This document shows, one piece after another, positions 2,179 to 47,793 of a stretch of 64,000 bases of DNA. Location of the stretch: positions 3,584,001 to 3,648,000 of the forward strand of contig CM000208.1 of assembly GCA_000002445.1 (NCBI GenBank), written 5' to 3'. The notes beneath the pieces were generated by a model, which had not been told where the DNA came from, ran no database searches, and saw only the letters and a program-made list of their open reading frames with translations. This DNA is from Trypanosoma brucei. Taxonomy: Eukaryota. Position 1 is the stretch's first letter, and every line of letters begins with the position of its first letter. The translations under genes and the position numbers were made by a program.

Positions 2179-3442
2179 TTTACCACAAGCGTCTATTGCA
2201 TGCGACTGTCTGGTTGCTCTCCTTGTGCCGTCGCTCTCCTGCAAACGCGTACCAAGGGAAAAATTAAACCAGTAAACCCCTTTCATGTACGCGTTTGCGT
2301 AGGCAAGAAAGGATAGTATTAGGGCGGTTTTCTCTCTCTCTCTCTCTTGCTTTTGATATATATATAGATATATATATGTACGTGCATGTGCCGTTCACAT
2401 ATAGCTCTCTGTGCTACCTGTTCAAGTCACTCCTGCTTTTTCCCTTCTTCTTCTTCTTCTTAACTTTCGTGATTTCCCCCCCCCCTAGTGTGTGGTTGTT
2501 CCGACCGGGCGCGCCCTAGTAAACTACTGTCTTTATGTTGGCATTTGGGTCGGGAAGGAGGGTAGAGTCGTTGCACTGAAATCACTACATCAATGACAGA
2601 CGCGTACTGTGCGCTGTTTATTTACATTATTATTATTATTTTTTGTGGGATGTAGGCAACATTTAGCAGGAGTACAACCAGGGAGAATAGGGGTTATTTA
2701 TAAGTTAGAGGTCTGTGGTATTGATGGAACAGTCAGCACTGCCCGTCACGGAAAAGTGTTTGTGTGTGTTAATAAAGTGTCGTGTAATTTTGGGAGATGA
2801 GCAGTGCGGTTCTCACGTTGCTGTGATACAACAACAACAACAACAACAACTATCGTTTCCCCTCTCCCCTCTCTCTCTGTATGTGCGCGACCATGCACTA
2901 ACTGAAGCAGTGTTCGGTGCCTATGAATTGTGCGTTGCGTCTTCCATTTGTTTTGGTCTTGCACATTTTGTCATGTGGATAGCGAGTTGTGTAATGGCAT
3001 TTCTTTTTCTTTCTTTTTTCTCTCTCTCTCTCTCTCTGTCTCTGTCTTTATCGTACTTTTCTTTCATAGGCGTTGGGTGCCGTGTGATTGATCTTTATTT
3101 ACTTTCAGTGTCCAATTTTTTGACCATTGTTTTCTTTTCGTCACTACTCTTTACTTACCCCCCTTTACTAATTTTTGCATTGTCACTAAGGGAGAAAAGG
3201 AGGAGCAAAACAAAAACAAAAGGAAAAGCCACTGAGAATAGGAGGTAATAATATATAACAGAGAGGAAGAACGGTTGAGGAGCAATTCTTGAAGGTTATC
3301 CGTACACTCACAAGCTTCAGCGTATCATAGATTAGGGTGTTTATACACATATTTTTGTTGCTGCCGTTGACTGTTTCTTTATTTGCATTTAATTAAATCT
3401 CAAACAAAAAGAAAAAAATCGTACACTCACAACTACTTTGCC

Positions 3443-43910: not shown

Positions 43911-45998
43911 ATGTCCTCCCTGACATCCGTCCAACGGCGCTTGCTCAAGTACGCCTTAGAGGACAAAGAGTCCAAGAAGTTATTGAAGCGCAAACGTGCG
44001 GAGGATGTTGCACCAGCGCTGCACCAACGCGAAAAGAAACGGACATGTGGTCACGTATGTGAGGCAGATACCACGCAGGATACGGAAATGACTCCACTTT
44101 GCCCTGAATTGCTTGACTTTGTGCGGCAGAAATGCCCCAGCGCGCCACGGAAGCTTCGCAAGGGACAGCTACACGTCATTAATGCTCTCAGTCGGGGTGC
44201 CGTAAGTGGTAAGGATGATGACGCTATAAATCGTTGTGGTGCCAGAGGCGCGTTTTCCGTAAAGCGGCTGGAAATGAAGGATCTCCCGTTTGCTTTTTCC
44301 ATCTTGGGATTGGCAGCGCTGCAGCGGCGATTATTATTTGACCAGAAAGTGAAAAATGGAACCTCGCTCCTGGTACTAACGGAGGACGAAGAGGACGCTA
44401 ACTCAGTTGCTCTTCACTTGAAGGAAACGTATCGTGGCGTCCACGTTTTAGTGCTCGACGGGTCGCGTTTTCCGTCGTTCCCCAACATTCCCAACGAGGA
44501 GGATAATGACGGAGACGCTACCAACAATACCTTTGCCGAGCGTACTGTGGTATTAGTGTCGTCGCTACAGGCCTTTCTTTCCTCCGACGGGCGGAGTGCA
44601 ATATGGAAATTTGTGGGGGCATACGTTGTTATTTTGAGGGAGTTGACTAACAGCACCTGTGTAGCAATGAAGGGTATGAAGAGAATGGAGCGGCAGGAAT
44701 TTTTGAAAAAACTGTGCGAGAAGAGGTGGCTTTGTTTGGATCACACACCAGTGGCTGCCGTGATAGCTCCTGCCCGCCACGCTCTCTTCACACCATTGGC
44801 TGATGCACTTACAATTTCTGTGCCCGTAGCGGGAGAGGATGCTGGAGAAGCGAAGACCGTTGACAAAGGGGAGGTCCGTGACTCCCATGATGAGAACCAA
44901 AGTAAGAAAAAGAAGGGGCTTCCAGTTGATACGTTGCGTGACCCTGTCACTGTACACTACACCGTGGTTGAAGGTCAACATCGCTTCCACACGTTGTATG
45001 CATTAGTGATGAATGCTCGTGCGGGCCAGGGCATTGTTGTGCATGTTGCCACCAAAGAAGTCTGCCAATTCCTCTATGATGTTCTACACGCACTCGGAGA
45101 TCTTCCACCATCACTTTTACTACTTACGGACTACGCGGGCCCCAGTGTGCACGCCTCAGTCCGTGACAGTGACGAAGACCGACAGAAAGTATGTGACAAG
45201 TTCGACGATATTGTTGTGAACTCCGACAAATCACTAGCAGGCAGTGGAAAAAGGGACCGTGTGGTCCTAATTTCTTCATTTGGCCTTGTTCCTCAAAGGG
45301 GGACCGTTTTCGTTCAGTACGACATCATTGTTGATATTGCGAACTTTTCCCAATTTGTCAGCGACGTGCTCACACCCGCGGCTTACGCGAACTTAGCGGC
45401 ATCACAGTTACCCCGTTTGGGTGGTCGTGCTGCACCGGGGGTTACTTCTGCAAGGCGGTCAAGATCTGTCTCCCCCAGCAAAAGCGTTTCTCCACCAAGG
45501 CCAACGCAGGTTCGTGCCATGTACCGTCACGTGCTGCTGTTACTCCGTAAAAACGAGCTTCAGGGGGCGCTTGAGCACTTCAACAGGTCTGCCAACAGGC
45601 TTCACATAACATACAAGCCTATGAAGCAAATGCCCTCTGCCACTCGATTCCTATTAGCGGTGCAGAAATTGCAGTCCCTGAACAAAAAGCAGTTTGCGGT
45701 CCAAAATGCTGCGTATGCCGCTTACAGAGCAACAATGTTGTTGTACTCCGTCATAAGCAGCAGCAAGGAGGTGTACGACGAGCGCAATGTTGATCTCAAA
45801 CTAGTTGCGCAGGAGTTCGGATATTCGGACGCTCCTATTGTCGATTTGCGCACACGTGACACAGCATTTCGACCCAAGGAGAATATCTTTCGCGCAGCGT
45901 GCAAAAGAGCAGCGCGTGACCGCCGTTTGCTGCTGCGCCCCCCTGCTGAGGAAGGCAGTCCCGAGGTGTCACAGCCACAGAGGGAGGAAAACCAGTAG
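43911..45998 (+). CDS. DEAD-box helicase-like protein with degenerate catalytic motifs (putative pseudo-helicase)
   Basis: RecA-1/RecA-2 architecture is recognisable, but Walker A is GARGAFSV instead of AxxGxGKT. The motif II position reads HVLVLDGS instead of DEAD. The helicase-C region is retained (VVLISSFGLVPQRGTVFVQYDIIVD). 695 aa. Confidence 0.65.
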   Translation: MSSLTSVQRRLLKYALEDKESKKLLKRKRAEDVAPALHQREKKRTCGHVCEADTTQDTEMTPLCPELLDFVRQKCPSAPRKLRKGQLHVINALSRGAVSGKDDDAINRCGARGAFSVKRLEMKDLPFAFSILGLAALQRRLLFDQKVKNGTSLLVLTEDEEDANSVALHLKETYRGVHVLVLDGSRFPSFPNIPNEEDNDGDATNNTFAERTVVLVSSLQAFLSSDGRSAIWKFVGAYVVILRELTNSTCVAMKGMKRMERQEFLKKLCEKRWLCLDHTPVAAVIAPARHALFTPLADALTISVPVAGEDAGEAKTVDKGEVRDSHDENQSKKKKGLPVDTLRDPVTVHYTVVEGQHRFHTLYALVMNARAGQGIVVHVATKEVCQFLYDVLHALGDLPPSLLLLTDYAGPSVHASVRDSDEDRQKVCDKFDDIVVNSDKSLAGSGKRDRVVLISSFGLVPQRGTVFVQYDIIVDIANFSQFVSDVLTPAAYANLAASQLPRLGGRAAPGVTSARRSRSVSPSKSVSPPRPTQVRAMYRHVLLLLRKNELQGALEHFNRSANRLHITYKPMKQMPSATRFLLAVQKLQSLNKKQFAVQNAAYAAYRATMLLYSVISSSKEVYDERNVDLKLVAQEFGYSDAPIVDLRTRDTAFRPKENIFRAACKRAARDRRLLLRPPAEEGSPEVSQPQREENQ

Positions 45999-46845: not shown

Positions 46846-47793
46846 ATGCCGCCGAAGCGAAAATCAGCTCAGCACCAACGGGATGACGATGATGATATGT
46901 CGTCCCAGTGGGTGGAAGGTAACTCAACGCCCTTCCAAAAATACTTCAACACGAAGTACTCCTCCGAGTTCATGGGAAGCCTTCCCGAACGAATTCGTCA
47001 GCGCGCCCAGGTTCTCCTGTACTACCATGAGAAATGTGAGAGGATCCGGAAGGACTTTGAGGAAAAGGAAACGGCGCTGCGCCGCAAGTATGATGAGATT
47101 TACGCACCTCTGCTGGACAAGCGGAAGGAGATCATTACAGGTGCGCATCTGCCAACAGACGAAGAGGTAAGGAAAGGACTCCCTAGCGAGCACGAGGGGA
47201 AGGTAAGTGTTACCACTGATGCCGATGTGGGGAAAGGACTTCCTGGTTTCTGGCTGCGCGTGTTGAAGCACCATGTTCTTTCCGCTTCCATGATTCGAGA
47301 TCACGATGAACCTGTTCTTATGCATTTAATAGACGTGCGCTCAGGCGTTGTGGACGGTGGTTATGGGAGTATTGCCGTTGCGTTTGTTTTCGAGCCGAAC
47401 CCATTCTTCCAAGAGGAGACCCTAATTCTGAAGCTTGTCCAGGGGGACGACGGGGCGACTGTCACCCGTACCCCCATCACGTGGAAACCGGGGAAGGATG
47501 TAACGGTGAGGACGGAGAAGGTAAAGAAGTCAGGGAAACGTGGGCAAGGGGGGAAGGTAAAGACAATCACTGTTCCGCAGCCCTCGTTTTTCAACACTTT
47601 TAAGGAGAATGGTGGGTCGGGTGCCGCCACCGCTCACGATGATGATGATGAGGATGATGAAGATGAAGATGAGTGGACTGAACAGCTTCTTCAGGTGCTT
47701 CATACAAGCATCATTCCGTCCGCTGTCCACCACTACACCGGCGAAGCCCCGGATGGCGCTAGTGATATTGATACTGACTACGATGATGATGAT

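Follow-up and report, generated by a model that had tools for sequence, protein, structure and literature searches.

Tb927.10.15170 of Trypanosoma brucei represents a pseudohelicase family related to the nucleolar DEAD-box helicase Has1/DDX18, with a proposed role in ribosome assembly

Background

The DEAD-box helicase known as Has1 in yeast, DDX18 in human and pitchoune in the fly is a nucleolar enzyme of the 90S and pre-60S particles. Two roles are ascribed to yeast Has1, namely an ATP-dependent remodelling of the 90S particle and a structural role on the nucleolar pre-60S particle that is long-lived and independent of catalysis. The DEAD-box fold also serves as a stable platform, and not as a processive enzyme, in eIF4A3 of the exon junction complex, which has all of its motifs intact and requires ATP for RNA clamping. 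A further group is formed by Spb4/DDX55 and the other helicases carrying the CTE_SPB4 domain (DUF4217); the extension of Spb4 and, by inference, that of Has1 is a docking element for the pre-ribosome (PMC9196750). Utp25/DEF (PF06862), a pan-eukaryotic component of the SSU processome with degenerate or dispensable motifs and a structural role in ribosome assembly, has been called 'the first fully validated pseudohelicase' (PMC9539457). In kinetoplastids, the mitoribosomal DEAD-box assembly factor mt-LAF2 has been described as Has1/Mss116-like (PMC7703582).

In comparison with these systems, the protein analyzed here, Tb927.10.15170 of T. brucei, resembles Has1 in its fold, although all nine helicase motifs of Has1 are lost or unrecognisable. 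It differs from Has1 additionally by a disordered inter-domain linker, an S/P/R-rich insert in front of the C-terminal extension, a family-specific tail and a conserved N-terminal peptide, as well as by the lack of a Pfam DEAD or Helicase_C match. The closest functional concept is provided by Utp25, to which the Tb927.10.15170 family is analogous but of unrelated lineage: Pfam UTP25 (PF06862) gave no match in the T. brucei protein at E<=10, and Utp25 has an N-terminal accessory region and lacks an SPB4-type extension, whereas the accessory domain of Tb927.10.15170 is a C-terminal extension of exactly this type.

Identification and expression of the gene

The window, i.e. the stretch of 64,000 nucleotides of T. 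brucei contig CM000208.1 that was analyzed, contains at 43911..45998 of the + strand a complete open reading frame that encodes a protein of 695 amino acids (77 kDa, pI 9.35). By its match to proteins of the T. brucei group it corresponds to Tb927.10.15170, annotated as 'hypothetical protein, conserved', and this identifier was assigned because of the gene order, with IFT52 (Tb927.10.14980, window position 3383) and NAP3 (Tb927.10.15180, window position 46846) as reference genes. In published proteomics of purified procyclic nuclei, the protein was detected with 35 peptides and a nuclear enrichment score of 2.67 (p 8.6e-4). It is therefore an expressed, nuclear-enriched protein, in line with the nuclear location guessed in the original prediction. 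The basic segment KKLLKRKRAED, already noted there as resembling a nuclear localization signal, indeed contains the sequence KRKR and thus a KRxR-type motif, which is overrepresented in the nuclear proteome of T. brucei.

Neither Tb927.10.15170 nor its accessions are mentioned in the main text of any paper found. The gene was likewise not found in the accessible parts of the TrypTag, snoRNA-processome and chromatin-factor supplements. Its likely Lister-427 identifier, Tb427_100160400, is not listed in the examined portion of the TbUTP6 SSU-processome pull-down table, although that portion covers the respective part of chromosome 10.

Domain organization of the deduced protein

The following features were delineated along the coding sequence:

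43911..44030, + strand: conserved N-terminal motif (aa 1-40) with the pattern R.L..YA...G...LK.R..ED.AP.L; pLDDT 73-90 in the deep-alignment model
43974-44006, + strand: basic segment KKLLKRKRAED (aa 22-32) with the KRxR-type NLS motif KRKR, inside the N-terminal motif
44091..44201, + strand: remnant of the Q-motif region (aa 61-97), from global hhalign, column view and residue retention
44250..44813, + strand: RecA1-like domain (aa 114-301), every motif lost
44814..44936, + strand: inter-domain linker (aa 302-342), disordered and poorly conserved; pLDDT <50 at 309-340, conservation 0.17
44937..45377, + strand: RecA2-like domain (aa 343-489), hydrophobic core of Has1 kept
45378..45515, + strand: S/P/R-rich basic linker (aa 490-535), disordered, containing RRSRSVSPSKSVSPPRP, pI 12; pLDDT <50 at 496-521, and composition
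45516..45839, + strand: SPB4/Has1-type C-terminal extension (aa 536-643), pI 9.8; Pfam CTE_SPB4 (PF13959) and alignment with Has1/DDX18 of the PDB
45840..45932, + strand: family-specific basic tail (aa 644-674), pI 11.5; conservation 0.61
45834-45878, + strand: best-conserved 15-mer of the protein, PIVDLRTRDTAFRPK (aa 642-656), crossing the boundary between extension and tail; conservation 0.81 in 38 sequences

The predicted structure comprises two tandem RecA-like domains with SF2 topology. The N-terminal motif is preserved even in family members with only 21-26% identity. In the Q-motif region, PLcpELLdFvrqkCPsAPRKLrkgQLhVInaL stands opposite L.LSE.T.KAI..MGFT.MT.IQ...IPPLL of Has1 within a low-confidence stretch of the hhalign alignment, and the Q-motif glutamine, Q86, is present in 57% of the family members. 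The core of the RecA2-like domain is represented by YtVvEGqhRFhtLyaL, which aligns with YVVcesdkRFllLfsFL of Has1, while the S/P/R-rich linker is an insertion that faces a gap on the Has1 side. The tail follows the consensus PLLDLRTKDTxFRPKED, in which, according to a column view, D645 and R654 never vary and R647 hardly varies. With respect to charge, the RecA cores (pI 7.1 and 5.6) range from neutral to acidic, and the extension, the tail and the S/P/R-rich linker are basic (pI 9.8, 11.5 and 12.0).

The CTE_SPB4 profile (PF13959/DUF4217) scored 16.7 bits (E 0.007) in the T. brucei protein, which is below the gathering cut-off of 27 bits, whereas the relatives P0033 (42.9 bits), P0039 (38.7), P0032 (35.0), P0036 (34.0), P0035 (31.7) and P0028 (31.3) exceed it. 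Membership in this domain family is accordingly assigned by transitivity through the aligned members and not from the single sequence.

Loss of the helicase motifs

The helicase motifs were located by profile and structure alignment with Has1. In the RecA1-like domain, motif Ia (PTRELA) is replaced by EDEEDA (aa 158-163), the 'GG' motif by DGS (aa 183-185), motif Ib (TPGRL) by SLQAF (aa 218-222), motif II (DEAD) by ELTN (aa 244-247) within YVVILRELTN (aa 238-247), and motif III (SAT) by APA (aa 286-288). In the RecA2-like domain, motif IV is represented by VHVAT (aa 377-381), motif V (TDVAARGLD) by SSFGLV (aa 455-460) with only G458 and L459 preserved, the QFDPP sequence of Has1 by QYDII (aa 469-473), and motif VI (HRVGRTAR), the arginines of which are found in no member of the family, by QFVSDVLTP (aa 481-489). 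Of the 161 Has1-invariant positions that were aligned, only 35 are kept, and none of these is catalytic.

The original prediction of a pseudohelicase, i.e. a protein shaped like a DEAD-box enzyme whose ATPase motifs are eroded, is thus upheld, as no intact GKT or DEAD motif was hidden from the first inspection and family profile and structure comparisons show a highly significant similarity to helicase domains. Two of the motifs named at that time have to be reassigned: VLVLDGS (aa 179-185), taken for motif II, aligns with the strand and 'GG' motif of Has1 (GIVIGGAN), and VSSLQ (aa 216-220), taken for SAT, aligns with motif Ib (ATPGR). For the Walker A motif, the loss of GKT is confirmed but the proposed position at GARGAFSV is doubtful. 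The global hhalign register does place GARGAFSV (aa 110-117) opposite GSGKTLAF, in overlap with a non-conserved stretch of variable length that has a pLDDT <50 at 105-111. The predicted secondary structure favours MKDLPF (approximately aa 122-127) as the former P-loop, located between a strand (116-121) and a helix (125-142) that are connected by a loop of only about three residues without glycine. The P-loop is gone whichever register is taken, and none of 28 family members has a G-rich loop or GK[ST]. The DEAD and SAT motifs and the RNA-binding motifs Ia, Ib and V are likewise missing from every aligned member.

Remnants of the motifs were detected in distant members exactly where the alignment predicts them, including EPT, SP or TP for motif Ia, TPxxF for Ib, IVDE, IDD or VDS for II, AST or GAT for III, and FDPPxD; a few distant members retain a lone Asp or an Asp-Glu pair in motif II. 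On the other hand, the Pfam profiles DEAD (PF00270) and Helicase_C (PF00271) matched neither the T. brucei protein, even at E<=10, nor any of 26 other family members scanned, and a single-sequence Pfam scan and a phmmer search against the PDB yielded only weak matches to the C-terminal extension. Hence, the likeness to helicases is detectable only by profile or structure comparison. Since the fold is kept, the catalytic residues are lost, the sequence is conserved under constraint and the protein is expressed, Tb927.10.15170 is a pseudoenzyme of the pseudohelicase type, with its inactivity predicted from the sequence and the structural model. Accordingly, an RNA-stimulated ATPase activity is predicted to be absent.

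Descent from Has1/DDX18

The family profile aligned with that of Has1/DDX18 with a probability of 98.8% (E 1e-16) in local and 99.7% (E 3e-24) in global hhalign mode. A search of the PDB with the family HMM retrieved five Has1/DDX18 sequences with E-values of 1.5e-16 to 4.7e-12, followed by Spb4-type helicases as the next hits (E 0.011-0.026), a similarity weaker by approximately ten orders of magnitude. On the family HMM, scores of 31-68 bits were obtained for all 119 canonical Has1-like proteins; in turn, a Has1/DDX18 HMM gave 30.5 bits for the T. brucei protein. The identity to Has1 in structural alignments amounts to about 14-19%, and the eIF4A3 structures 2hyi and 2j0s appeared in the structure search as generic fold matches only. 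By both sequence profile and structure, Has1/DDX18 is therefore the helicase subfamily nearest to Tb927.10.15170, whose family descends from this nucleolar helicase, with the RecA1, RecA2 and SPB4-type extension domains kept.

Three candidates for relatives or origins were rejected. Environmental contig L001, which carries a DEAD-box gene immediately in front of a family member, had suggested an origin by tandem duplication; the DEAD-box gene encodes a generic helicase with 30% identity to Has1 and no C-terminal extension, and an open reading frame of equal length further upstream is unrelated. The Has1-like protein P0055 of the euglenid Urceolus cornutus, with half-eroded motifs, was ruled out as an evolutionary intermediate, as it scored 43.6 bits on the family HMM and ranked 91 of 120, compared with a median of 49 for canonical Has1. 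Moreover, mt-LAF2 is a different protein from Tb927.10.15170, with conserved catalytic and ATP-binding sites and both ATP and RNA bound; PDB searches revealed no kinetoplastid chain that matches Tb927.10.15170.

Conservation of the family

The family comprises 54 representatives, of which 30 reach E<1e-30, and is a new, previously unnamed pseudohelicase family whose named members are so far restricted to trypanosomatids, in addition to environmental relatives; a homologue search with the family alignment retrieved nine Trypanosoma proteins only. The tail is the best-conserved region (0.61), followed by the extension (0.51) and the RecA2-like domain (0.46). The open reading frame is intact in each species examined, and invariant residues persist among members that are only 18-25% identical. 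These data indicate that constraint acts on the family in trypanosomatids and also in its more remote members. At the approximately 50% identity of the orthologues, saturation of synonymous sites is to be expected.

Proposed function and alternative explanations

As all motifs for ATP use and RNA gripping are lost, Tb927.10.15170 is most likely a passive scaffold and not an enzyme. The protein would neither bind nor hydrolyse ATP, nor use the canonical cleft between the two domains for RNA clamping. We consider it moderately probable that this Has1-derived pseudohelicase has a structural, ATP-independent function on pre-ribosomal particles, most probably those of the pre-60S type, as an assembly factor or placeholder. 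Docking would be mediated mainly by the basic C-terminal extension and the tail PLLDLRTKDTxFRPKED, and surfaces for protein binding may be offered by the inert RecA body together with the conserved peptide at the N-terminus. The Has1 site would not be occupied in the same way, because the motifs of the RecA cleft that grip helix H16 are gone. The family plausibly arose by duplication of Has1 and subsequent subfunctionalization, after which the pseudohelicase copy would have retained only the catalysis-independent, long-lived pre-60S role reported for yeast Has1; a mechanistic precedent for this role is given in a review (PMC9196750). More specifically, a gene duplication in the kinetoplastid ancestor may have split the two roles of yeast Has1, which would make Tb927.10.15170 a permanently 'off' Has1 for the structural pre-60S role only, possibly adapted to the uniquely fragmented LSU rRNA of trypanosomatids; this extension is offered tentatively, as a possibility that we do not regard as probable.

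Among the competing explanations, a nuclear scaffold unrelated to ribosome assembly, with the dead fold re-used as a protein-interaction platform in, e.g., mRNA processing or export or chromatin, appears unlikely to us but deserves some weight. The loss of all RNA-binding motifs, the nuclear enrichment, which was observed at nuclear and not nucleolar resolution, and the similarity of the N-terminal peptide and the S/P/R-rich linker to protein-docking or regulatory elements are consistent with it. However, the strongest constraint acts on the Has1/Spb4-type extension, by which Spb4 docks to the pre-ribosome, and on the basic tail, and Tb927.10.15170 was not found in the accessible part of the chromatin-factor interactome tables. 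Somewhat less credible is the assumption that Tb927.10.15170 is the sole trypanosomatid orthologue of Has1, so that Has1 itself is catalytically dead in these organisms and the task for which yeast Has1 uses ATP, the release of the U14 snoRNA from the 90S particle, is perhaps unneeded. Has1/DDX18 proteins are the nearest relatives by every measure, searches for a U14 homologue in trypanosomes were unsuccessful (PMC6411936), and the literature search gave no paper naming a canonical trypanosome Has1. Has1 is, however, otherwise highly conserved in eukaryotes (57-68% identity, alignment A3), and 17 DExD/H helicases of T. brucei have been matched to yeast ribosome-biogenesis homologues, compared with 19 in yeast, with Dbp6 reported as the missing one, which leaves little room for an absence of Has1. 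The lack of the protein from the examined portion of the UTP6 pull-down points weakly in the same direction and also weakly against the pre-ribosomal role proposed above, as it concerns the small subunit only.

An RNA clamp that is ATP-dependent or ATP-locked like eIF4A3, by means of non-canonical nucleotide- and RNA-binding residues, is very improbable. The model retains an intact two-domain fold, and the partial conservation of Q86 would fit such a clamp, but the missing phosphate-binding loop in every family member, its glycine-free replacement of about three residues, the loss of the DEAD, SAT and motif VI arginine residues, the erosion of the RNA-contact motifs Ia, Ib and V and the neutral to acidic RecA cores all argue against it. 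The eIF4A3-like role that had been suggested at first is consequently a poor fit: eIF4A3 has a complete set of motifs and clamps RNA in an ATP-dependent manner, whereas Tb927.10.15170 has lost its ATP site and shows erosion of the RNA-binding motifs Ia, Ib, IV and V as well. A better precedent is offered by the Utp25 pseudohelicase. Finally, the extreme divergence from Has1 might be taken to mean that the gene is the remains of a helicase gene in decay and without function, an explanation that is effectively refuted by the intact reading frames, the invariant residues in highly divergent members and a protein abundant enough to yield 35 peptides.

Pseudohelicases are rare, and Tb927.10.15170 represents a second, independent case after Utp25, whose parent enzyme (Has1/DDX18) is clear and whose stages of erosion can be followed across the family. 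A 'hypothetical protein, conserved' without Pfam domain is thereby turned into a testable candidate for a ribosome-assembly factor in a group of pathogens with unusual processing of the large-subunit rRNA. If the proposed pre-60S binding holds true, the protein would be an experiment of nature on the ATPase-independent role that has been reported for Has1 and, as a lineage-restricted protein, might be of interest as a drug target. If the two roles of Has1 were indeed split, it would be a natural separation-of-function allele, providing a direct test of whether the pre-60S function of Has1 needs the ATPase, and a parasite-specific, probably essential assembly factor. With respect to annotation pipelines, the case calls for caution, as single-sequence domain scans overlook Tb927.10.15170 and family profiles or predicted structures are needed for its recognition.

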